Assembly (NCBI GenBank): GCA_913043225.1
Contig: CAJWLU010000028.1
Location: 1 to 39,560, forward strand
DNA from: an uncultured Acidobacteriota bacterium
GTDB taxonomy: Bacteria > Acidobacteriota > Vicinamibacteria > Vicinamibacterales > UBA8438
Reading direction: 5' to 3'
Length of the DNA stretch: 39,560 bases
Under the pieces are notes generated by a model. The model was not told the origin of the DNA, ran no database searches, and saw only the letters and a list, made by a program, of their open reading frames with translations. The position numbers were made by a program, and so were the translations under genes. Shown here piece by piece: positions 3,318 through 39,367 of this stretch (position 1 is the first letter of the stretch; each line of letters opens with the position of its first letter).

Positions 3318-4766
3318 ATGCTGATTGAATTCGACAACAGCTACGCCAGGTTGCCCGAGCGTTTCTACGCGCGCCAGGCCCCGACCCCGGTCCCTCGCCC
3401 CGAACTGATCCGGCTGAATGCCGAGCTAGCGAAGGTGCTCGGGATCGATGCGGTATGGCTCCGTTCAGACGAGGGGGTAGCGATGTTGGCGGGCAACGTC
3501 ACACCCGAGGGAGCCGAGCCGCTCGCTCAGGCGTACGCGGGGCATCAGTTTGGCGGCTTTGTGCCACAACTGGGCGACGGTCGGGCGTTGCTGCTGGGAG
3601 AGGTGGTGGATGTCGTAGGTGCCCGCCGTGACGTGCAGCTGAAGGGCTCAGGCCGGACGCCGTTCTCCCGGGGCGGTGACGGGAAATCGGCACTGGGGCC
3701 TGTCATTCGCGAATACGTCGTCAGCGAGGCGATGGCCGCGCTCGGGGTCCCGACGACTAGGGCACTGGCGGCGGTGGCCACCGGCGAGCAAGTTATCCGT
3801 CAGCAGGGCCCGGAACCGGGTGGGGTCTTTACCCGGGTCGCCTCCAGTCACATCCGGGTCGGCACGTTCCAGTACTTCATTGCGCGTCGGGACCACGACG
3901 CCGTTAGGGAATTGGCCGACCACGCGATCGCCCGTCACTATCCTGAGGCAGCCGAGTCGCCCGCACCGTATCGGACTCTGCTCGAGCGCGTCGTGGCCGC
4001 GCAGGCCGACCTGATCGCCCACTGGCTCTCGCTGGGCTTCATTCATGGCGTCATGAATACCGACAACACGACGGTGTCGGGGGAGACCATCGACTATGGC
4101 CCGTGCGCGTTCATGGACGACTTTCAGGCGCGGAAGGTGTTCAGCTCGATCGACACTGGTGGCCGGTACGCGTGGGGCAACCAGTCGGAAATCGGACTCT
4201 GGAACCTGACACGGTTTGCCGAGACCTTGCTGCCACTACTGGCCGACGTCGAGTCCGAGGCCATTTCGACGGCCGAGCAAGTACTGCAGGGCTATGCGGG
4301 TCGGTTTAGTACGGAGTTCGGCCGACGGTTCCGGAACAAGCTGGGCCTGACGGCCGAGGTCGACGGCGAGCGGATTCAGGCCTGCCTCGATCTCCTGGAA
4401 CGCCAGCAGATCGACTTCACGGTGTTCTTCCGGAGGCTGACTGTTGTGGCCGGGGGAGGAGACGTCGGGCCGCTTCGAGCGCTGTTCTCGGAGGGGGCGT
4501 CGTTCGACGACTGGTTCGAGACCTGGACAGGCGATACGAGCCCAGGCGTGCGGTTCGACGAGATGCGCACGGCCAATCCGATCCGCATTCCGCGGAACCA
4601 CCGGGTGGAAGAGGCGATCCGAGGGGTCTACGGCGGTGATTACGCTGCTTTTCACCGGCTGGTCGATGCGCTCGCCGTTCCCTATGAGGACCGGGCTGAC
4701 TACGCCGACCTCGAGTGTCCTCCGCAGCCCGAGGAAGTGGTCCAGCGGACGTTCTGCGGCACGTGA
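3318..4766 (+). CDS. selO: Protein adenylyltransferase SelO (YdiU/UPF0061 family)
   Basis: YAGHQFG, QLGDGRA, LKGSGRTPFSRGGDG, HGVMNTDN, IDYGPCAF, PRNH and terminal TFCGT motifs. Confidence 0.95.
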   Translation: MLIEFDNSYARLPERFYARQAPTPVPRPELIRLNAELAKVLGIDAVWLRSDEGVAMLAGNVTPEGAEPLAQAYAGHQFGGFVPQLGDGRALLLGEVVDVVGARRDVQLKGSGRTPFSRGGDGKSALGPVIREYVVSEAMAALGVPTTRALAAVATGEQVIRQQGPEPGGVFTRVASSHIRVGTFQYFIARRDHDAVRELADHAIARHYPEAAESPAPYRTLLERVVAAQADLIAHWLSLGFIHGVMNTDNTTVSGETIDYGPCAFMDDFQARKVFSSIDTGGRYAWGNQSEIGLWNLTRFAETLLPLLADVESEAISTAEQVLQGYAGRFSTEFGRRFRNKLGLTAEVDGERIQACLDLLERQQIDFTVFFRRLTVVAGGGDVGPLRALFSEGASFDDWFETWTGDTSPGVRFDEMRTANPIRIPRNHRVEEAIRGVYGGDYAAFHRLVDALAVPYEDRADYADLECPPQPEEVVQRTFCGT

Positions 4767-7854: not shown

Positions 7855-8220
7855 TTACGGCGTGGCGTTCCAGATGTCCCGATGCATCCGCCAGCCGGCT
7901 TCACCACGGGTCCACATCTCGACGTACTTACCCGTCAGTGGTTGTTCGCCCGCTACCTCCAGCCTGAATGTGCCGATCACGTTAGCCAGATCGCCGTCCA
8001 CGAACATCTCTTGAATCTCGAGGCTCGCCGACTCCACGCTACCCGCAAAATCGCCCCAGAATCAGGAAATCGCCTCTAGTCCTTCGATGGGTGCCGCGTC
8101 GGGGGGCAACAGCACCGCGTCCGCGGTGTAGACCGCAGCGATCCCGGCACCATTCTTGGCGTTGAAGGCGCGTACCCACTCTTCGCTTGCGGTTCGGATC
8201 TGGTTGGCATCTGCTGATAT
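7855..8220 (-). pseudogene. DUF4440/NTF2-like (YybH-type) gene interrupted by an in-frame TGA
   Basis: ORFs 8062-8283 and 7855-8037 share a frame: YTADAVLLPPDAAPIEGLEAIS*FWGDF...GKYVEMWTRGEAGWRMHRDIWN. The AAGGAG RBS is followed by ATA (8218-8220) rather than ATG. Confidence 0.75.
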
Positions 8221-8319
8221 CAGTCGACTCCTTTGCTCTAATAACTCACATTCTTGTGCTGCGTGTTGCTGGCCGCTGTTCAACCGCGTCGCATGATCGA
8301 TGAATTGATCAGATCGCGT

Positions 8320-8640
8320 TCAGCTGCCAGCTGGTTTGTAGTCGACGGCCACCTTACTTGCGGCATCTATGTCTTCAGGCGAAATCAAAGGCATGAGGCT
8401 TACCTTGATGACACCGCTGGCATTAACTGCCAAGGATATGGCCGTAGCCGTTTTTGCGTCTGGTGCATCTATAAATCCCACGACATCATCTTCGCCATAA
8501 GCGAAATACGCCGACTCAACCGTGCACCCATGATTGGAGAACAGCTGGGAGATATAACGAAGTCGTGAGGTTCCGCCTTCTTTGAGCAGACCTCTCACCC
8601 CTTCCGCGGCATAGCGCCCTTTGAACATATATTTGGCCAC
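8320..8640 (-). CDS. GYD domain-containing protein
   Basis: KYMFKGRY..EGVRGLLKEGGTSR...YFAYGEDDVV pattern; GTG start after GAGGAGG. Confidence 0.85.
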   Translation of the reverse strand: MAKYMFKGRYAAEGVRGLLKEGGTSRLRYISQLFSNHGCTVESAYFAYGEDDVVGFIDAPDAKTATAISLAVNASGVIKVSLMPLISPEDIDAASKVAVDYKPAGS

Positions 8641-8700
8641 TGCATGCCCTCCTCTACGAATTGATATCAGGCACCATTTGGTCCACGCCAAACGCCTGGA

Positions 8701-9081
8701 TCAGCTGACTTCTACGTAAGTACCCGTCCACGACCCGTCCGCGTGATTCAGGATTCCTTCGGTCCTAAGTTTTCGTCCATCCGACAGGTCATGATTCAGC
8801 TTAATCCGCACGCGGAGTTCCATGCCGATCCGTTCAAACGTGCCATGGGCGATATCTGCGAGAACCGTTCCATCCTCAAGAATGGTCTTGGCGACCCAGG
8901 TACAAGTGCCGGAGCTTGCGCCGCCCTCGCTAAGTGGCTGGCTATAGCTAAGGCTCCCCAATGGGGCATTGAACTCAGTCGCGCTGCCTTCAAATGAGGT
9001 GACGTGAGTGAGGACGCCCGGTGAGGTCTCGGTGAGCGTGAAGCCCGTTCGGGTGAAGCTGTATTCTCCAGAGCTGGCCAC
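8701..9081 (-). CDS. Hypothetical beta-rich protein
   Basis: 126-aa ORF with AGAGGAG RBS, co-oriented with its neighbours. Confidence 0.65.
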   Translation of the reverse strand: MASSGEYSFTRTGFTLTETSPGVLTHVTSFEGSATEFNAPLGSLSYSQPLSEGGASSGTCTWVAKTILEDGTVLADIAHGTFERIGMELRVRIKLNHDLSDGRKLRTEGILNHADGSWTGTYVEVS

Positions 9082-9150
9082 AGTGGTCTCCTCTTGAGTG
9101 TGTTCGTGAAGTCAGCACGCAGGCTCTCAGTAGACAGCTCGTCCTCACGC

Positions 9151-9909
9151 TTAGTCGCCAGCTGAATAATTAAGGTCTGGTCTACTCCGCCAATTTGTGC
9201 GCTCAGTTCTGACGCTAAAGGAATTACCACTGAGAGCGCCCTGGATAACACTTCGGTTCTCTTCGCGGTGCTCGTAGTAGTCAGCCGCGTCAAGGGCAGG
9301 GTAGAACACGGAATACGCATTGCCGCTTCCCCCAAGAACCGTCCTCGCCACAAAGCGAGGTTGATCGCTCCCAGCCGCCCGAAGTGCTGCACTTACGCCA
9401 GCCATCGACTCCATGGCGGCTTGTCTGGTCCCCGGTCGCGCATAGATCTTGATCTGATGTGTAAACATTCCTTCGCCCTGGGCGACCCTCGGGTTGTCCG
9501 GCCGGTAAAAAAGTTCTGGCATCGGCGCAGAGATCTCTCTCCAGAAGCGGTTGACAGTGTCAGGTATCCCTGAATTACCACCTCCAGGGCGAGCGTCAAA
9601 CCACTCGGTCCGCGCTGCCATGTCGGACCAGCCGTTCGGTAAAGCAATGCCGATTCGGGCCACGTTCGTTTCGCTAATCCATACGGTCTCGTTCCACGGA
9701 TAGTCCTCTGACTCGCGGTACTCGATGGCTCGTTGGCGAGCCTCTTCCCAGGCAGAGACTTCACCGGGCTTAATCTGCATATACATCGAAAGATATAACC
9801 CCTGCGTTTGCCCCTCATTAGTCTGTGCGCCATCTGGCGAACAGCCAATCAGAGCGACTGATGTCAGCAAGGCAAGAGTGAGATAGATTCTTGAAAAAGA
9901 ACGAGTCAT
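9151..9909 (-). CDS. Hypothetical lipoprotein, paralog of 9946-10689
   Basis: Lipobox LIGC, GGAGG RBS; aligns by eye with the upstream gene. Confidence 0.75.
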   Translation of the reverse strand: MTRSFSRIYLTLALLTSVALIGCSPDGAQTNEGQTQGLYLSMYMQIKPGEVSAWEEARQRAIEYRESEDYPWNETVWISETNVARIGIALPNGWSDMAARTEWFDARPGGGNSGIPDTVNRFWREISAPMPELFYRPDNPRVAQGEGMFTHQIKIYARPGTRQAAMESMAGVSAALRAAGSDQPRFVARTVLGGSGNAYSVFYPALDAADYYEHREENRSVIQGALSGNSFSVRTERTNWRSRPDLNYSAGD

Positions 9910-9945
9910 TGAGAGCCTCCGCAAAAAGTGTCGGTGTGAGCTGAG

Positions 9946-10689
9946 TTAGTCCTCGGGCACGAAATCGAGATCTCGTAGTCGCGTCCAGTTTCTGACCACG
10001 GTTCTCTGTACCGCTCCGGGCGTCCGCTCGCCGCGAAGACTCTCAAAAATCGGTTGCAGCGCCTCTCGTCCGCCGTAGTAGGCGGCAGCACTTTCTGCTG
10101 GATAAAAAATACTGAAGTGGGGGCTTCCGCCCATGACTCCGCTCATCACAAACCGTGCCTGAGCGATGCCGGCCTCCTCGAACGCCGAAGACACGCGGGC
10201 CATGGAGTCTCGCAGAGCCTGTCCATGACCAGGGGCACCATAAAGACGACGTTCTTGAAGGAAGTTTGTCGTGCTCGGTTCATACCCACTTGGACGATAG
10301 GCTAATTCAGGCCGTGTGCGTGTCAGTTCGTTCCAGAACCGCGAAACTGTATTCGCAAAGGTTCCAGAGCGAGGGTTGTCTCTGCGCCATGCTCGGCGTG
10401 CCTCTATGTCAGAGAAGCCGTTCGGCAGTCGTATGCTCAGGCGAACGACGTTGTCTTCGCTGATCGTGACTCTTTCATCCCAGCTGTAGCCATGTTCCTG
10501 CAGATGCGCAATCTGTTGTTGGCGCCCTTCTATCCAGGCGTCTCGTTGGCCAGGCGCAATCTGTGCGTACAGGCGCATTACCATCATGCCTTCATCATTG
10601 GTCTGGGCGTCAGCTGCCGTCGGCCCCATGAGCACGAACGGTAGCCCGAGGAGGGAGCAAAAAACGTGTTTGGTGATGTGCTTAATCAT
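9946..10689 (-). CDS. Hypothetical secreted protein, paralog of 9151-9909
   Basis: Signal peptide ending ADA-Q; shares QI.PG...AW...R, ISE.NV.R..I.LPNG.SD..AR..W and FYPA..AA.YY motifs with the neighbour. Start uncertain. Confidence 0.75.
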   Translation of the reverse strand: MIKHITKHVFCSLLGLPFVLMGPTAADAQTNDEGMMVMRLYAQIAPGQRDAWIEGRQQQIAHLQEHGYSWDERVTISEDNVVRLSIRLPNGFSDIEARRAWRRDNPRSGTFANTVSRFWNELTRTRPELAYRPSGYEPSTTNFLQERRLYGAPGHGQALRDSMARVSSAFEEAGIAQARFVMSGVMGGSPHFSIFYPAESAAAYYGGREALQPIFESLRGERTPGAVQRTVVRNWTRLRDLDFVPED

Positions 10690-10784
10690 GATGTCTCGCA
10701 AGCATGGATATCCGTAGTCTTTAGAGCCAGAAGCCATTCAATGACACGAGCGTCTCTTCGCGTGCGTGTCCTTACTGCCCTGAA

Positions 10785-11195
10785 CTATTTCCATTCCCAG
10801 CACTTGTTCACGGCAGTTCCATCCGGCGCCACGTCGTATTCCCCAGCCAGGCCAACATGGTTCAGGTCGGCGAACCGCGGAGCGTCTGTATGGACAAACA
10901 GCATCGTGGCAAAGTGGGTTGATCCGTCTTCGCCGGCGGCCTTCGCTGCACCACGGCCTGTGACCGTCAGGACTTCACCGTCCACGGTTGTCATGACTGC
11001 CGTGCCCTCCCCGTAGACCGAACCGTCCGGCCTCGCCAGTGCCGTGTATGTCCATTTCGTCGTCTCTTCGACGCCTCGGATCGTGCCCTTGAGCGTGAGT
11101 GAAATCTCGTTCTTGATGCCGTGTTCGTCATTCGACAGTTCACGGACAGCGTCTATGGTTCCGGTCTCGTCGAGAATAAGGTTTCCAAGTGCCAT
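10785..11195 (-). CDS. Conserved hypothetical beta-barrel-like protein
   Basis: MALGNLILDETG...RPDGSVYGEG...NKCWEWK; GGAAGGAG RBS before ATG 11195. Confidence 0.75.
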   Translation of the reverse strand: MALGNLILDETGTIDAVRELSNDEHGIKNEISLTLKGTIRGVEETTKWTYTALARPDGSVYGEGTAVMTTVDGEVLTVTGRGAAKAAGEDGSTHFATMLFVHTDAPRFADLNHVGLAGEYDVAPDGTAVNKCWEWK

Positions 11196-11897
11196 GTTGC
11201 CGTCTCCTTCCAGGGGATACGTGAGGGCCTGTCCGGCAGGCCACAGTTTGGCGCGGCAAAAGCGCCACACCAGCTTTATCTTGCCGGAGGCGGAACTGCC
11301 GCCCGCGGGTTCTCGCCAAGCGCATGTTTCGACGCCAAGCTCAAGGCCGAAACAGCGTCTACGAACGCGCTACCTTTGAGAGCGAATTCATCATAGCAGA
11401 AGAGGTGCAAATGGAGGTGAGCCGGAAGACTGGCACCGGAGGCAACATCCTGGGCGACAGTGGCAAGAGGGGACGTTGAATTAGAACGGGTGATTGTTCT
11501 AATGGCGAATGGTTTGACGTGCCCTCGCAATTGAGCAGCAGTGATAGGCGGACCAACTCTGAGCTCAGCGCTTGGTGTTGACGGAACTATGACGGGGCGA
11601 TCGCGCGATGGGGATCAGTGAGCGGCGGCCCTGGCCGTGGTCAAGATAAGTGCGTCCGTGCTGCGCTATCAGCCGGCGCTGGACTGCAACCGAGGGCTGC
11701 GGGCGCGGACCGTCCCCTCGTGCATTAGCATCGTCGGTAGGGGGTCGGTTTGTCTGAAGCTGCGACCCTCTCGCGCGCGCAGTTTGCCGCGCACCTTACG
11801 TAGGGACAACGGAGCATGGTCACCGTTGGGCTCTAGACCGATGCGCTACTGACGGTGGGGGGTGTCGAGTTCTCGCTCATTCGAGCGACGAACGGTG

Positions 11898-12299
11898 CTA
11901 ATCCACGAAGGCGGCTGTCACCAACTCCGTGTCAAGGTATTCCGTCCACTTCTTGATCCGGCCATCATGCACCTCGATGACAAAACAGTAGGTGTTGTTG
12001 TACGACCGTCCGGTCTTCGTTCGAGCCGTCCCTTGCACCTGTGCGACTACGGTATTCCCTTCCGCGATCGTGTTCTGGACCTCTCCACGAATGCCATTCT
12101 CGTCGAGCTGCTCTCCGAGACGCCCAAATAAACGCGAGGCGAGGTCGTCTTTCCCGACGTAGGTCCCGGAATAGATGGTCTGGCCGATGATCGTCCACTG
12201 CACGTCGTCAGCAAAGCAGTCGAAGAACCCTGGCATGTCTCCAGCAGAGAGCGCCGCGAACGTCCGTACGACCAGATCTCGGTTTGCCTCAACAGTCAT
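11898..12299 (-). CDS. NTF2/SnoaL-like (ketosteroid-isomerase-like) protein
   Basis: FADDVQWTIIG, IAEGNTVV, GRSYNNTYCFV, DGRIKKWTEYLDT. Confidence 0.9.
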   Translation of the reverse strand: MTVEANRDLVVRTFAALSAGDMPGFFDCFADDVQWTIIGQTIYSGTYVGKDDLASRLFGRLGEQLDENGIRGEVQNTIAEGNTVVAQVQGTARTKTGRSYNNTYCFVIEVHDGRIKKWTEYLDTELVTAAFVD

Positions 12300-12607
12300 A
12301 TAGATTCCACTTTCTGTGCGACCAATCTTTCGACGCAACACCCATGCCTAGCGAGTTCTATTCGTCATCGAGCCATTCGGCTCTGCAGTCGATCGCAGCG
12401 GAGCGTTCTAGTGGTCGTCTGACATCCTCGTTGCGTTGGAGCACGTCCTTTCTGCTCCCGCCTCCTACTGTATCGCCTTTGGGGGCTTGCCGCGGGGGCC
12501 GAACGTGCGGATTAGTGAAGCCATGTGCAGCCGGGAACAGCCTGGTCCGCCGGCGGCCGTCTGAGAGTGTCGCACCCCTGCTCGGCGCGCCAGCGCCAGG
12601 CGTGTTC

Positions 12608-25762: not shown

Positions 25763-27214
25763 TCAGGACGTCACGCGGCCGAATACGAGTCCCTGAGCCG
25801 TACCGGCCGAGAGCGTGAAGCCGGTCACGGCCCCCCGCGCGTTCCGCCGGAACACGAACTCCACTTGGCGCGGTCCGGTCCAGGCCGGGAAGTCAACGCC
25901 CCGGAATCGGTCCTCACCCAAGGGCTCGAGCGCGAGCGGTGGCCATCGTTCGATCCGGACCTGGAGCGTGCCATTGGCCAGCGCCAGGTGATACCGCCCG
26001 TCTAGTTCCTCGCTGTAGAACACGCCGTCGTAGTCGCCGGACACCAGCGAGAGATCGACTACCGGCTCCCTCTCCTGGACGGGGCGCTCTCGGCGCGGGG
26101 CGGTTGGTGCCGCCAGGTCAAGGCGGTCGGCCAGGACCAGGTCGAGCACCCGATACGCGAACCACAGCGGGTTCAGGTCTTCCCGGTTACACAGCACGGC
26201 GACCGTGGTGTCTTCCTCCGGTACCCGAAGCAGGTGCGCCCGGAAGCCCCAGGTGCTTCCGCCATGGGACTGGGTGATCTCGCCACGGTACTCGCCGAGC
26301 ACGATGCCGCCGCCGTACTCCGTCCGGCTGCCATCGGCGAGTGTTCCAGGCGCCAGCATCTGCTCGGTGAATTCCGGTCCAGCCACACCGTCGGCAATGA
26401 ACGCTCGGCTCCAAACCAGCAAGTCCTCGACGGTGGTGTAGAGCTGCCCATCGCCCGCTGTGGCAAAAGGGAAATTGTGTACCATCCGGAAGCTGGCGGC
26501 GTTACCCCTGGCCGGGGCGTAGCCGGTAGCACGGTTGGGTACCACCTGCTCGGCATCCTCGTACAGGAAGCTCGCTGTCATCCCGAGCGGGTGGAAGATG
26601 CGCGTTTCGGCGAAGTGGTCGAACCGTTGGCCAGACACGCGCTCCACGATCGTTGCCGCGAGCATGTAGCCGGTGTTGCTGTACCGATAGCGTGATCCGG
26701 GCGGGTCGACCAGCGCGTGTTGCCGTGCGAGGAGTTCCACGATGTCTTGATGCTGGATGGGCGCGTAGAAGTCTCGCCCGCCCAGCGCCATCAGATTGAG
26801 GTAGTCGCGAACGCCGCTGGTGTGATGCAGCAGGTCGCGCACGCGAATCGGCGTTTCGTGCTCCGGCAGTTCCGGGAGATAGTCTCTGACGTCATCGTCA
26901 AGTGAGAGTGCCCCGTCTTGGGCGAGTAGGACCGTGCTGGCCGCGGTGAACTGTTTTGTGACGGAGCCGACATCGAAGACGGTCCGCGGCGTGATCGGGA
27001 TCCGATGATCGAGGTTGGCCAGCCCGTATCCGCGTGAGAGCTCCGTGGTCTCGTCGCGTGCGACGCCCAGCGCGCACCCTGGGCTATCCGCCGCGATCTC
27101 GGATGAAAATATCGTGTCGATCTGGTCAGACAACGCGGAAGAGGAGTATTCGCCGGCGCACGCGATGGTGCCGGTGGTCAGGATGAGCAGGAGTGCCACG
27201 TGCCTGGCCGTCAT
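25763..27214 (-). CDS. Serine hydrolase, beta-lactamase/D-aminopeptidase-like (probable lipoprotein)
   Basis: SVTK (SxxK), LLHHTSG, YSNTGY, HGGS; C-terminal YDGVFYSEELD beta domain. Confidence 0.9.
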   Translation of the reverse strand: MTARHVALLLILTTGTIACAGEYSSSALSDQIDTIFSSEIAADSPGCALGVARDETTELSRGYGLANLDHRIPITPRTVFDVGSVTKQFTAASTVLLAQDGALSLDDDVRDYLPELPEHETPIRVRDLLHHTSGVRDYLNLMALGGRDFYAPIQHQDIVELLARQHALVDPPGSRYRYSNTGYMLAATIVERVSGQRFDHFAETRIFHPLGMTASFLYEDAEQVVPNRATGYAPARGNAASFRMVHNFPFATAGDGQLYTTVEDLLVWSRAFIADGVAGPEFTEQMLAPGTLADGSRTEYGGGIVLGEYRGEITQSHGGSTWGFRAHLLRVPEEDTTVAVLCNREDLNPLWFAYRVLDLVLADRLDLAAPTAPRRERPVQEREPVVDLSLVSGDYDGVFYSEELDGRYHLALANGTLQVRIERWPPLALEPLGEDRFRGVDFPAWTGPRQVEFVFRRNARGAVTGFTLSAGTAQGLVFGRVTS

Positions 27215-27226
27215 CGCAGTTCCAGG

Positions 27227-28501
27227 TTACGGGCGGTCGGTCAGATAGGGGATGGTCTGTGGTCCTTCCGGTAGCACGCACAGACGCGCATTTGGGCCCG
27301 ATCGGGCGAGCGCCTCACGGGTCGCAGCGGCCACGTCGGCCACCGGGGTCAGGTGCGCGGAGCGGACTTGGTCGTCGGACAGCCCGTCGGTTCGCAGCAG
27401 TACATCGGCACGTTGCTGGATCTGCGCCTGTACCTGCACCTCCCACTGGTCGTGCCGGTTATGTCCGGGGGTGTTAATCATGTCCAGCAGGTCGGGCGCG
27501 TTGTTGCGCTGGGTGAGGATGTCGAGATACTCACCATGATTGGGGTAGCCGTCGGCGCACTCTGCCGCGCAGACGATGACGCCTTGGTCTTTTACCACCT
27601 GCGCCGCGGCCGACATCCCCTTGACTGCCTGATACAGGTTCTGGTCGAGAGGATAGCCGCTGTTAGTGGTGACCACCACGTCGAAAGGTTCGTCGCACGC
27701 CTGCATCGCTGTACGGCGGACCACTTCCCGCACGGTTCGATGTACTTGGAAGAGTTCGCCCGCAGCGACGTACGTGATCTGGCGGTCGCGGTTAATGGCC
27801 ACGTCGACGCTGAAGTCGACGCCCACCCGCGCCGCGATGCGCCGGATGCCGTCGTGGATGGGGTTGCCTTCGGTGATGCCCCAGCGCGCATTGGGATGCC
27901 GGATCATCTCGGCATCGTGTAGCCGCATGATGGTGGCGAAACCCGCTAGGCCCGGCGCCACCATCTTGGGACCGCCGCTGAATCCAGCGAAGAAGTGCGG
28001 CTCGACGAAACCGGTCGTGATCCGGACGTCGGCTTCCATCCAGGTGCGATTCAGCCACACGGGGATCCGGTCGTCGACTTCACCCTGTGACACGAGCTGC
28101 GACTGGTCGAAGGCGTCGTGGATGACGATGCGATTGTCGTCGACGATGCGCCCACCGAGCATCTCAACGAGTTCGTCTCGCGTGGTGGCCCGGTGGGTGC
28201 CGCTGGCCACCATGATGCTGATCTGGTCGGTAGGAACGTGCGACAGCGCCTCAAGCACCACCGGTAGGACCGTGGCGCTGGGCATCGGCCGAGTGACGTC
28301 GCAGATCGAGATGGCGACGGTCTGGTCTGGCCCGACGAGCTCGCGCAGCGGGGCCGTGCCCGTCGGGCGGGTGATGGCGTCCCGTACCGCGCTCGCCTCG
28401 TCGGGCAGCCCATCCACGTAGGTCGGTTCGATGATCGTGGTGCGGTCCTCGGGGAACTCGACGTCCAGCCCAGAGCGACCGTAAGCGAGCGTCACGCGCA
28501 T
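27227..28501 (-). CDS. larA: Nickel-pincer-dependent LarA-family racemase/epimerase
   Basis: MRVTLAYG start, DVTRPMP, ASGTHR, HDA, EPHFFAGFSGGPK, GYPLDQNLYQAVKG, AECADG, VLPEGP. Substrate not assignable from sequence. Confidence 0.9.
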   Translation of the reverse strand: MRVTLAYGRSGLDVEFPEDRTTIIEPTYVDGLPDEASAVRDAITRPTGTAPLRELVGPDQTVAISICDVTRPMPSATVLPVVLEALSHVPTDQISIMVASGTHRATTRDELVEMLGGRIVDDNRIVIHDAFDQSQLVSQGEVDDRIPVWLNRTWMEADVRITTGFVEPHFFAGFSGGPKMVAPGLAGFATIMRLHDAEMIRHPNARWGITEGNPIHDGIRRIAARVGVDFSVDVAINRDRQITYVAAGELFQVHRTVREVVRRTAMQACDEPFDVVVTTNSGYPLDQNLYQAVKGMSAAAQVVKDQGVIVCAAECADGYPNHGEYLDILTQRNNAPDLLDMINTPGHNRHDQWEVQVQAQIQQRADVLLRTDGLSDDQVRSAHLTPVADVAAATREALARSGPNARLCVLPEGPQTIPYLTDRP

Positions 28502-29034
28502 GTGAGTACCGTCTGGATCTGGGACACGACTTCGTCGGCACGCGTCCCGATCTGCTCGTCGGAGAGCGTACTCAGTGGGTGGGTGATGATCACCGGTTCG
28601 AGCGTGTCGGCGCCCAGTGCAGCGCGTTGGACGTGCGCCTCGCGTATGAACCCGCTGGTGATGATGGCCGCCACCGGAACTCCTCGTGTTTCGAGCCCGA
28701 CTGCGTCGTGCAAACTGCACGACGTGCAGGACCCTCAATCGCCTATGGCGCTGATGACGACATCGTTCTCTGCCGCCACCCGGTCGAGCAGGTCGTCAGG
28801 CGCAAGCCGTGAAAAGCTCTCCTTGGTGTAGCGGGTGAAGGTTGTCCCGGACGCGTCGCGTTCGACCCGGCTCATCACCGCTCGGAGCAGCTTCGACGCG
28901 TTCCATTTCGAGTTATCGAAGATGCCAATGCGGAGCGTGTCGAGCGAGCGAACCCGCGGCGCGAGCGAGACGGCGGCGGTGGTGACCGTTCCACGGGGAT
29001 CGAAGACGGGGGGAGACGGGAGATGATTGGTCAT
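28492..29034 (-). CDS. UGSC-family selenoprotein, copy 1 (180 aa; Sec at TGA 28735-28737)
   Basis: ORFs 28735-29034 and 28492-28713 are in frame and joined by TGA-GSCTSCS: ...VVISAIGD-U-GSCTSCSLHDAVGLETRGVP...IITHPL; SECIS-like hairpin at +11. Confidence 0.9.
28705..28723 (-). promoter_or_regulatory. Bacterial SECIS-like hairpin, copy 1
   Basis: mRNA: UGA-GGGUCCUGCAC-GUCGUGCA-GUU-UGCACGAC. Perfect 8-bp stem, GU in the apical loop, starting 11 nt after the UGA. Confidence 0.8.
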
Positions 29035-29107
29035 TGGGTTTGTTCTGTAGGCGACTCACGAAGTCTGAAGCTTGAACCCTCTGGGCCTCTGACGTCGACC
29101 GCTCCCC

Positions 29108-30208
29108 TTACAGTTCACACGTCCCGTCCACGCAACGGTGTGTGCCGGGGTCGCGGCCGTCGATGGCACGGAGGACGGGGGAGGTCATGTGGCCCCAGCC
29201 GGGGAGGAAAGCCGAAAACCGTCCTTCTTTGCCACCGGCCACGAAGAGGTGGATGTCCTCGGGTGTCGGTACGATCGGAATCCGGGCGCCGGTCTCCCGC
29301 CGATACCAGCGTGGGAGATTGCGGTTGTAGACCTTGCCGTAGCGTCCGCTGAAACTGATGTCGTCGTAGGTATTGGTCGTGTGCGACCACAGATAGCGGC
29401 GGACATCGCCGCGCGTCCAGTTCCTGGACGCGATCGTCGCCGCATGTTCCGGACCGATGACCACGGCGCAGGAACCGCTGCTGACCGCGTTGTTGTGAGC
29501 GATAGTGCTCATCGCCGAGATGATGCTGTCGAGGATGCCCTCTGGGTCGTTAGCCACGTGGTTTGTCACACTGTGCGGGGGCTCGGCGGCAATGCAGAAG
29601 GCCGTGCTCTCGTCTGGCCGATAGCCCTGCTCGACGTGATAGGGCGCCCAGGGGCTGGCCTCTTCGTTCTCGGCGATGCAGAACGTGTACTTGCCGGGGT
29701 GACCTAGCGTGCTCTTGTCGAGGTCGCCAGGCCAGCCGCCCCCCACGTTGAGCAGGATGAGGCGGATGGCGCGGCCGATAGTCGCGTTGGCCCGATGTCC
29801 AGACCCGAACACGTTGGCGCCAGAGTTCAACCCGATCGCCTCGCGTACTGGGCCGTTCACCACTACCAGCGGTGCCGCCATATGGGTGGTGGCTTGGATG
29901 CCGTTCAGATTGAAGTGCGACGTGCAGAGAGCCAGTAGTGCCGTCCTGACGACCGGGGCGTAGGCGGGCTTGCATCCGGCCAGCACGAGATTGATGGCCA
30001 TTACCTCGCGGGTCAGGTTGCCCCATCGAGGCGGCACTCGCACTTCGAGGTGGTCCGGATTGCCACCCAAGGCCTGCACCATCGCGTCCACCGACTGTGG
30101 GGTCGGAGGCACGACCGGCAGCCCGTCGGTCCAGCCTTGCTCGAAATACCACTCGATGAGCCCGGCGGGATCGGTGGGAGTGCTCGTGATTGTCTGTGGT
30201 TCCGACAT
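29108..30208 (-). CDS. Uncharacterised conserved protein, 'WTDGLPVVPPT' family (UGSC partner)
   Basis: GWTDGLPVVPPT, AINLVLAGCKP, QATTH, RANATIGRA, STLGHPGKY, AENEEASPW, GPEHA, VAGG..GRFS; GAGG RBS before ATG 30208; C-terminal CVDGTC. Confidence 0.85.
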   Translation of the reverse strand: MSEPQTITSTPTDPAGLIEWYFEQGWTDGLPVVPPTPQSVDAMVQALGGNPDHLEVRVPPRWGNLTREVMAINLVLAGCKPAYAPVVRTALLALCTSHFNLNGIQATTHMAAPLVVVNGPVREAIGLNSGANVFGSGHRANATIGRAIRLILLNVGGGWPGDLDKSTLGHPGKYTFCIAENEEASPWAPYHVEQGYRPDESTAFCIAAEPPHSVTNHVANDPEGILDSIISAMSTIAHNNAVSSGSCAVVIGPEHAATIASRNWTRGDVRRYLWSHTTNTYDDISFSGRYGKVYNRNLPRWYRRETGARIPIVPTPEDIHLFVAGGKEGRFSAFLPGWGHMTSPVLRAIDGRDPGTHRCVDGTCEL

Positions 30209-37489: not shown

Positions 37490-38023
37490 CTACCCGGTGA
37501 TGGCCGACACAATCGAGTGATAGGCGGCGCGCGCCTTCTCGTGCATTTCTTCGTCAGTCGAACCCTGGACCGGATGAGGAACGAAGATCGACGCCTCCGC
37601 CATTTCGGGCATTCCGAGCGCGGCCGCCTGGGTTTGGGCCGCGTGGACAAACTCCGATGAGGCGATCATCACCGACGGGATGCCTCGCGCTTCGTAGTCG
37701 ACCAGGTCGTGCACACTGCACGACGTGCAGGACCCTCAATCGGCGAGGGCCTGGATGACCGCCCGGCACCGTGAGGCTACCTTGGCCCGGAGGTCGGATG
37801 GTGACGGCTTGGTATAGGTGGGCTTGCGTAGTCGGATGATCTCCAGATCGGGAAGGTCTGCTCTCAGGAGCCGTTCCACTTCATTCAGGAAGACGTCGCC
37901 GCGCGGCTTCGCGATGTCGATCAGTCCCAGGGGACCAGTCAGCTGGTCGGGCCGCGTGGCTGGACGACGCCCAATCGGCTCCTGTTCAGCCGTGGGGTCA
38001 AGAATCACCAGTGATCCACTCAT
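37490..38023 (-). CDS. UGSC-family selenoprotein, copy 2 (177 aa; Sec at TGA 37736-37738)
   Basis: ORFs 37736-38023 and 37490-37714 are in frame: ...AVIQALAD-U-GSCTSCSVHDLVDYEARGIPSV...FVPHPVQ; same SECIS-like hairpin as copy 1. Confidence 0.9.
37706..37724 (-). promoter_or_regulatory. Bacterial SECIS-like hairpin, copy 2
   Basis: mRNA: UGA-GGGUCCUGCAC-GUCGUGCA-GUG-UGCACGAC; identical to copy 1 except one loop base. Confidence 0.8.
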
Positions 38024-38059: not shown

Positions 38060-38425
38060 CTATCTGCAAATTTCCCGGGTGACCGCCATCGAACCCATGG
38101 TGCCACTGGCCCAGCCGCCGAGGAACGCCGAGAACTTCCCGGCAGTGCCTCCGCCCACCATGATGAGGATGTCGGAATTCTCCTTGAACTTGGGGACAGG
38201 TCGGGCTAGAGCTTCCTCGGTCGGCTGTCCGTCTGGTCCCTTCCAGTCCGGTGGCAGACCGGCCGGCACCGTGCCTTTCTGGCACTCGTCGTTCGGCAGC
38301 AGGTCGCGAAGTGGGCGGGCCGTCACCTCCTGGATCCTCGCCCGCAGGTCCGCTTTGCTGTAGCCGTCGGCCTTGAAGGTGCGGGCATGCTCGGGGCTGA
38401 CCACTAGGAGCACCTCGCCCATGCG
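38060..38425 (-). pseudogene. C-terminal fragment of a second 'WTDGLP'-family UGSC partner gene, 5'-truncated at the breakpoint
   Basis: GEVLLVVSPEHARTF..GYSKADLR...DILIMVGGGTAGKFSAFLGGW matches GSCAVVIGPEHAATI..NWTRGDVR...DIHLFVAGGKEGRFSAFLPGW of 29108-30208. Similarity stops near 38425. Confidence 0.8.
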
Positions 38426-39367
38426 GTGTATGGCTTCTTCAACAACGGCGGAGCCCGGGCCTACGTGGTCAACGTGGGCGTCGACGACAAGGGGCCCGAC
38501 AAGAAGGCCGGAAAGTTCATCGGGACCGACAATGGGCCAGGGACCCGCACGGGCCTGAAGACCCTTGAGGACGTGGATGACATCAACATCGTCGTGGCGC
38601 CGGGCCAGACCGATCCGGCCATCGTGGACGCGGTCCTCTCCCACTGCGAGAACATGCGTTACCGGTTCGCCATTCTCGATTCGCCTGAGGTGATCGAGAA
38701 GGGGGGCGTCGACAAGTTGGGCAAGCCCCGGGACAGCAAGTACGGCGCCTACTACTTCCCCTGGATCGAGGTCTACGACCCGAAGCAGGGCAACGTCACT
38801 GTCCCCCCCAGCGGGCACATGGCGGGGGTGTACGCTCGCAGTGATGCCGAGCGTGGCGTTCACAAGGCCCCTGCGAATGAGATTGTGCGTGGTGCCCTTG
38901 GGCTCAAGTACACGGTCACCAAGGGAGAGCAGGACGTGTTGAACCCGAAGGGGATCAACTGCATCCGCGAGTTCAAGGACCGCGGCATCCGGGTGTGGGG
39001 CGCTCGCACGGTGTCGTCGGACGCCTCGTGGCGCTACATCAACGTTCGCCGGCTGTTCAACATGGTCGAGGAGAGCATCGAGCGCGGCACCCAGTGGGTC
39101 GTCTTCGAGCCCAACGACCACAAGCTGTGGAAGCGGGTCACGCGTGACATCACCGCCTTCCTGATGCGCGTGTGGCGCACCGGCGCGCTCTTCGGAGAGA
39201 GCCCGGAGCAGGCCTTCTTCGTCAAGTGCGACGACGAGACCAACCCGCCCGAGGTCATTGACGCAGGTCAGATGATTTGCGAAATTGGCATGTGCCCGGT
39301 CAAGCCGGCTGAGTTTGTCATCTTCCGGATCGGCCAGATGGCCGCCGGTGGCGATATTTCGGAGTAA
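38411..39367 (+). CDS. Contractile tail sheath protein (eCIS/Afp-type), 5'-truncated
   Basis: LAHAVYGFFNNGG..AYVV, RFAILD, AYYFPWI, VPPSGHMAGVYARSD.ERGVHKAPANE, LNPKGINCIR, VWGART, WRYINVRR, WVVFEPND, PVKPAEFVIFRI. In-frame TAG at 38405-38407; the usual PGVY N-terminus is absent. Confidence 0.9.
   Translation, partial: HLAHAVYGFFNNGGARAYVVNVGVDDKGPDKKAGKFIGTDNGPGTRTGLKTLEDVDDINIVVAPGQTDPAIVDAVLSHCENMRYRFAILDSPEVIEKGGVDKLGKPRDSKYGAYYFPWIEVYDPKQGNVTVPPSGHMAGVYARSDAERGVHKAPANEIVRGALGLKYTVTKGEQDVLNPKGINCIREFKDRGIRVWGARTVSSDASWRYINVRRLFNMVEESIERGTQWVVFEPNDHKLWKRVTRDITAFLMRVWRTGALFGESPEQAFFVKCDDETNPPEVIDAGQMICEIGMCPVKPAEFVIFRIGQMAAGGDISE

Follow-up and report, generated by a model that had tools for sequence, protein, structure and literature searches.

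The question raised by the DNA studied here, a 39,560-nucleotide (nt) stretch of an uncultured Acidobacteriota bacterium of the Vicinamibacterales lineage UBA8438 (assembly GCA_913043225.1, contig CAJWLU010000028.1, forward-strand positions 1 to 39,560; hereafter the window), is whether a TGA lying in frame between two short open reading frames (ORFs) encodes selenocysteine (Sec) and, if so, what the resulting protein might do. The comparisons reported below leave very little doubt that this UGA is decoded as Sec and that the gene is a member of the UGSC family. The elements concerned are the following.

28492..29034, minus strand: UGSC-family selenoprotein gene, copy 1 (180 residues, predicted Sec at residue 100)
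28735..28737, minus strand: in-frame TGA predicted to be read as selenocysteine, on the strength of Cys homologs, TGA-bearing relatives and the Sec machinery
28704..28724, minus strand: predicted bacterial selenocysteine insertion sequence (SECIS) hairpin (stem 28724-28716 / 28712-28704, loop GUU at 28715-28713)
37490..38023, minus strand: UGSC-family selenoprotein gene, copy 2 (177 residues, predicted Sec at residue 96, TGA 37738-37736, same SECIS)

Translation of the minus strand from 29034 to 28492 yielded 180 amino acids with a single internal TGA at codon 100 (28737..28735), followed immediately by GSCTSC; the plus-strand frame of this interval was not the coding one. The portion preceding the TGA corresponds to the listed 99-residue ORF at 28735..29034, while the only starts that the portion following it could use on its own are a TTG at codon 108 and a GTG at codon 121. 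Guanine plus cytosine (GC) content by codon position was 0.62/0.51/0.79 upstream of the TGA and 0.65/0.51/0.78 downstream and, being equal on both sides, indicates that both halves look coding in one frame. The original prediction, which was made from the letters alone and held that two short ORFs join across a TGA heading a GSCTSC cluster to form one 180-residue protein, is thus in agreement with the translation and the codon-position composition. The TGA of copy 1 recurred in another marine metagenome, where two contigs that overlap each other (27000-28738 and 28711-29218) show 0 differences; neither spans the TGA with 31 letters on both sides. Two database proteins 95% identical to copy 1 end exactly at D99, as expected from the accompanying claim that standard gene callers split this gene; copy 1 is to this extent an annotation fix, automatic callers cutting the gene at the TGA and databases holding the cut forms.

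Database homologs were surveyed among the best 120 of 733, 118 of them full-length; position 100 was occupied by cysteine in 117 of these 118 proteins and by tryptophan in the remaining one (P0008). At the level of genomic DNA, TGA stands at the Sec position in each of the best 80 of 534 loci, most of which bear Vicinamibacterales or Acidobacteria in their titles and 12 of which are titled as other phyla, the frame continuing for 79-99 codons beyond it to a terminal stop that is TGA in 60 loci, TAG in 14 and TAA in 6. Across 61 related genomes, all 67 above-cut-off UGSC matches contain exactly one TGA; the 80 loci are kin and partly overlap this set, such that the counts are not independent. 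The gene was found in 33 of 36 same-family genomes. Profile searches identified selA, selB and selD in the genome, each above its cut-off, together with tRNA-Sec, the sole tRNA with a TCA anticodon found. Two of the checks proposed with the original prediction, cysteine aligned with the TGA in homologs and the presence of selA, selB, selC and selD, therefore came out in its favor. The occurrence of selA does not in itself discriminate, since it was found in 34 of 35 genomes with a UGSC match, yet in 56 of the 61 overall.

Folding of copy 1 revealed a 9-bp stem capped by a GUU loop 19 nt after the UGA, within the bacterial SECIS consensus of a 3-9 nt loop, a 4-16 bp stem and a 16-37 nt spacing given in the accessible part of PMC13188914. 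The SECIS-like hairpin that had been pointed out after the TGA is accordingly present, and its 6-bp core is paired in 80/80 loci, with one core pair alternating between G-C, G-U and A-U (69, 8 and 3 loci, respectively) and a loop starting with G-U in 79/80. Codon usage within the element is unusually fixed: the Ser codon of the loop is AGT in 67/67 cases, another Ser of the gene being AGC in 71/80, and the stem Thr and Ser codons are 93% and 96% fixed versus 46-89% for the same residues at other positions of the gene. The support that sequence lends to the SECIS thus comes from conservation, with synonymous sites frozen, and not from folding energy. The third cysteine of the proposed U-x-x-C-x-x-C motif, C106, whose codon is part of the SECIS stem, is kept in all 80 TGA forms and in only 67 of the 118 Cys forms; the UxxC (U-G-S-C) part of that motif holds family-wide, the third cysteine does not.

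Copy 2, the diverged paralog, carries its TGA (37738..37736) 9,001 nt from that of copy 1 and in the same alignment column, as had been noted beforehand, although the two proteins are only 31% identical; around the TGA, 36 of 37 nt are identical. No further UGSC copy was found in this genome, whose completeness is 96%. A 28-nt stretch over the TGA and SECIS (28711-28738 and 37712-37739) is identical in both paralogs and is conserved in other marine organisms to the point that metagenome contigs break at it and depth spikes to 165-327; this stretch may be the reason why UGSC loci often fragment in assemblies. Taken with the Sec machinery, the Cys homologs, the conserved TGA and the paired hairpin with its frozen synonymous sites, the recoding is, as far as sequence can tell, ordinary Sec insertion.

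The selenoprotein proved not to be new. Both copies cover nearly the full family model, including the U-G-S-C motif, and exceed the cut-offs of NCBIfam NF041046, 'UGSC family (seleno)protein' (150.1 and 152.8 bits for copies 1 and 2, cut-off 125), and Pfam PF24696 (183.9 bits, E 3.7e-54, and 147 bits, cut-off 25). The family was named in 2007 by Zhang and Gladyshev as 'UGSC-containing protein' (accessible part of PMC1976440), and the available text of their 2008 ocean survey (PMC2398784) ranks it as a major family, with 255 selenoprotein sequences and 21 Cys homologs, fifth most numerous in its Table 2. The same text and its Fig. S1A already note a fusion of UGSC to 'Unknown_1', and the part available of a 2026 review (PMC13188914) enters the family as predicted and uncharacterised. 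Family, recoding and fusion are thus all in print already, and the original description of a hidden selenoprotein does not stand in the sense of an unknown one.

What UGSC might do was approached through its upstream neighbor.

29108..30205, minus strand: partner gene 1, unnamed 365-residue protein (GWTDGLPVVPPT / AVMAGC family, 'Unknown_1'), 73 nt upstream of UGSC copy 1

No Pfam or NCBIfam match to this protein was obtained at E 0.001. The AVMAGC and NGP motifs of the partner are also found in the alignment text of Fig. S1A of PMC2398784, as far as that figure is available, which identifies it as 'Unknown_1' in the nomenclature of Zhang and Gladyshev. The partner belongs to a large family (7,997 of 8,000 scored candidates; 5,107 representatives), in which cysteines C78 and C176 are near-invariant (112/116 and 111/116, respectively). 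A partner gene was located within 6 kb of UGSC in 78/80 loci. When the 66 longer partner representatives among 150 listed were scanned for fusions, 42 contained a UGSC domain (13 whole and N-terminal, 25 post-Sec halves and 4 C-terminal ones ending just before Sec), both domain orders being represented; other domains were AhpC/TSA in 4, the beta subunit of ferredoxin-thioredoxin reductase (FTR-beta) in 2 and a pyridine-nucleotide disulphide reductase in 1. For a naturally fused homolog of the Cys form, docking of its two domains scored 0.60 versus 0.00 for the best control, with contacts agreeing at 92% or more between runs and a predicted local distance difference test (pLDDT) value of at least 88 for the partner. 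The docking mark was reached by 116/157 solved and 2/215 mismatched pairs; at 0.60 or below stood 18/157 and both mismatches. Altogether, UGSC and its partner quite probably act together.

The structure model of UGSC (pLDDT 90.3) displays alternating strands and helices devoid of a beta-hairpin, and its top fold matches among those listed were of the flavodoxin/TIR/Rossmann type. The decoding is well supported: tRNA-Sec and SelB read UGA codon 100 under the direction of the hairpin lying 19 nt downstream, which produces the 180-residue selenoprotein. On the mechanism that we propose, this protein would contribute the selenol to a thiol/selenol redox enzyme of two parts, the other part being the 365-residue partner. 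In the model, Sec100 lies at the start of the helix following a central strand of the alternating beta/alpha domain, a usual site of a nucleophile, from where the alignment-invariant Cys103 could resolve a selenenyl-sulfide. The partner, through C78 and C176, would provide the substrate site or pass on electrons, and thioredoxin-type donors would re-reduce the pair, a role for which the CxxC redoxin fused to the second partner in this lineage is a candidate. That a selenol/thiol redox cycle at U100/C103 is fed by such donors is an interpretation to which we give a slight preference. A number of observations weigh against it or reduce its support. The folding energy of the hairpin is modest taken alone (z -2.25 over 58 nt for copy 1, +0.17 for copy 2); the docking passes weakly and concerns a homolog rather than the pair of this window; many Cys-form homologs display a cluster of four to five cysteines (GDCGSCCSCC in 54/120) that also fits metal binding; and the loci, mostly bearing Vicinamibacterales titles, come largely from one order, their counts not being independent. 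No evidence as to the substrate emerged from this analysis, and a literature search, whose coverage did not extend to subscription papers, found no functional study of UGSC in the texts available to it. A cognate UGSC/partner pair with a fused redoxin donor nonetheless offers a concrete target for finding the function of the family, a value that is modest but real.

Other explanations were weighed against this redox cycle. UGSC and its partner could be distantly related or analogous to component B of the Stickland reductases (PrdB/GrdB plus large subunit), with the selenol attacking a substrate carbon and cleaving a C-N, C-S or C-O bond instead of engaging in disulfide exchange. Profile-profile comparison of UGSC with 23 PrdB-like selenoproteins placed a D-V-x-x-x-x-x-U-x-x-C helix and an E-x-R-G-I-P-T strand in register (hhalign probability 24%, E 8e-4, 49 columns; second alignment 17%, E 1.5e-3, 73 columns), as compared to 0.1% for a control alignment of the partner with the PrdB profile; PrdB, moreover, requires Sec and a partner subunit (PMC11229817), and GrdB carries a UxxCxxC motif (PMC13188914), according to the accessible portions of these papers. 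We nevertheless consider this relationship unlikely: the profile probabilities are low, the UGSC hidden Markov model misses the pre-Sec parts of PrdB-like proteins (best E 0.43), PF07355 is absent from the Pfam matches of 101 UGSC members, the partner gives no sign, in the Pfam and NCBIfam searches at E 0.001, of a PrdA/GrdE-type pyruvoyl proprotein, and C106 is not family-wide. PrdB-like selenoproteins (LLVPV-U-PxC; L130-L156) do occur in other families of the class, and 25 of 25 PF07355 matches examined end at TGA, 23 of them reading on in frame; none was found in 20 other searched genomes of this family, and a PF07355 search of the present genome gave no match, and neither did that search's controls. 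Less probable still is a role of the U/C-rich loop in binding metal or an Fe-S cluster, with a metalloenzyme such as a hydro-lyase or a Ni/Fe handling unit completed by the partner. The cysteine clusters mentioned above would suit such a site, but both fold matches were at background or level with those to unrelated flavodoxin-like folds, conservation throughout is limited to U100 and C103 (just two Cys being present in some fusions), the domains fused to the partner are thiol-redox modules, and the nearby racemase LarA described below is a lineage-specific neighbor.

The view of the original papers, that UGSC acts on its own as a thioredoxin-like oxidoreductase or peroxidase, its link to the partner then amounting to co-regulation only, draws on the UxxC motif and on the placement of UGSC among thiol oxidoreductase or thioredoxin-like proteins in the available text of PMC2398784. 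It seems to us improbable in light of the fusions in both orders, the adjacency in 78/80 loci, and a hairpin-less model whose best matches among those listed are flavodoxin/Rossmann-type. Hardly credible, finally, is a TGA that is an ordinary stop in a split gene or pseudogene, a sequencing error, or a Trp or Gly codon under another genetic code. The tryptophan of P0008 and the in-frame TTG and GTG after the TGA could be cited on its behalf; the TGA is, however, found in both paralogs, in 80/80 relatives and on other metagenome contigs, and the synonymous sites of the hairpin are frozen. A global reassignment is contradicted by TGA also terminating the same genes, and the only TCA-anticodon tRNA found was tRNA-Sec.

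The proposed redox partnership at U100/C103 is set here among the following neighboring genes.

27227..28501, minus strand: nickel-pincer LarA-family racemase (NF033504, 520 bits, cut-off 460)
38060..38422, minus strand: partner gene 2, 3' third (corresponds to the end of a redoxin-partner fusion of relatives; truncated here, probably by chimeric assembly)
38426-39367, plus strand: phage-tail-sheath-like gene (PF04984, PF17482)

The start of the LarA gene, located downstream, overlaps the stop of UGSC copy 1 by 10 nt, and larB and a LarE-type gene were found on other contigs of the genome. LarA is present in 61 of the 80 loci and in 0 of the 12 titled as other phyla; it is a lineage-specific neighbor of UGSC. 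Together with a FadB/J-type beta-oxidation enzyme and solute transporters, the racemase hints at a small organic acid, this setting being likewise lineage-specific.

In relatives, one gene that fuses redoxin and partner precedes UGSC copy 2; it is complete in 4 of 8 regions and cut by the contig end or more distant in 2 more, and its redoxin domain is of the CxxC type in this lineage. In the present genome this gene is broken between contig C40 and window position 38,422, with each end joined to unrelated DNA. At 38415-38430 the 3' third of partner gene 2 meets the 3' part of the phage-tail-sheath-like gene; an independent contig diverges from the window at 38,428, past which depth falls. The junction is probably an assembly chimera, and the final 1.1 kb of the window may be foreign to this genome. 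On contig C40 (L119, 913-2322), the reading frame of the redoxin-partner gene's 5' part continues into a tail that bears CxxCH and is followed by a Tat-exported (twin-arginine translocation) molybdopterin-enzyme-like ORF with no Pfam match; this join is probably a second chimera. We presume the tail and the ORF to resemble ActA/ActB of alternative complex III.

Elsewhere in the window, positions 7900-12600 have a lower GC content (55-59% versus 64%) and several small ORFs, including two paralog-like exported proteins on the minus strand (9151-9924 and 9946-10737); this segment was possibly acquired. A tRNA-Ser(cga) reported by ARAGORN at 4438-4534 lies inside the ORF 3318-4766, gave no Rfam match at the gathering threshold and is probably a false call.

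Among known systems, PrdB/GrdB (PF07355) resembles UGSC in that its Sec belongs to a UxxC(xxC) motif opening the helix that follows a D-V-x-x-x strand and in that it works with a larger partner, and differs in that UGSC shows no significant sequence match to it and the partner is of no recognised pyruvoyl type. A broader synthesis, tentative and in our judgment rather doubtful, would make UGSC and its partner a very widespread, undescribed two-subunit selenoenzyme of marine bacteria: a remotely PrdB/GrdB-like selenol on a flavodoxin-like domain would be docked on a 365-residue subunit with no clear solved-fold match and, served by thioredoxin-type donors, would reductively cleave or isomerise a small organic substrate, in the present case in conjunction with the nickel-pincer racemase. 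With respect to SelA/SelB/SelC/SelD decoding through an in-frame SECIS, all four components are present, the hairpin falls within the consensus and no difference was found. Relative to the UGSC family as published, the copies of this genome share the passing of the cut-offs, the U-G-S-C motif, Cys homologs, abundance in aquatic metagenomes and the Unknown_1 fusion, and nothing sets them outside it. Locally, the module occurs as two paralogs separated by 9 kb, copy 1 is overlapped by a LarA gene, and partner 2 carries a fused redoxin; the model obtained here, judged by the fold matches listed, looks flavodoxin-like, as opposed to the thioredoxin-like fold supposed in 2008.
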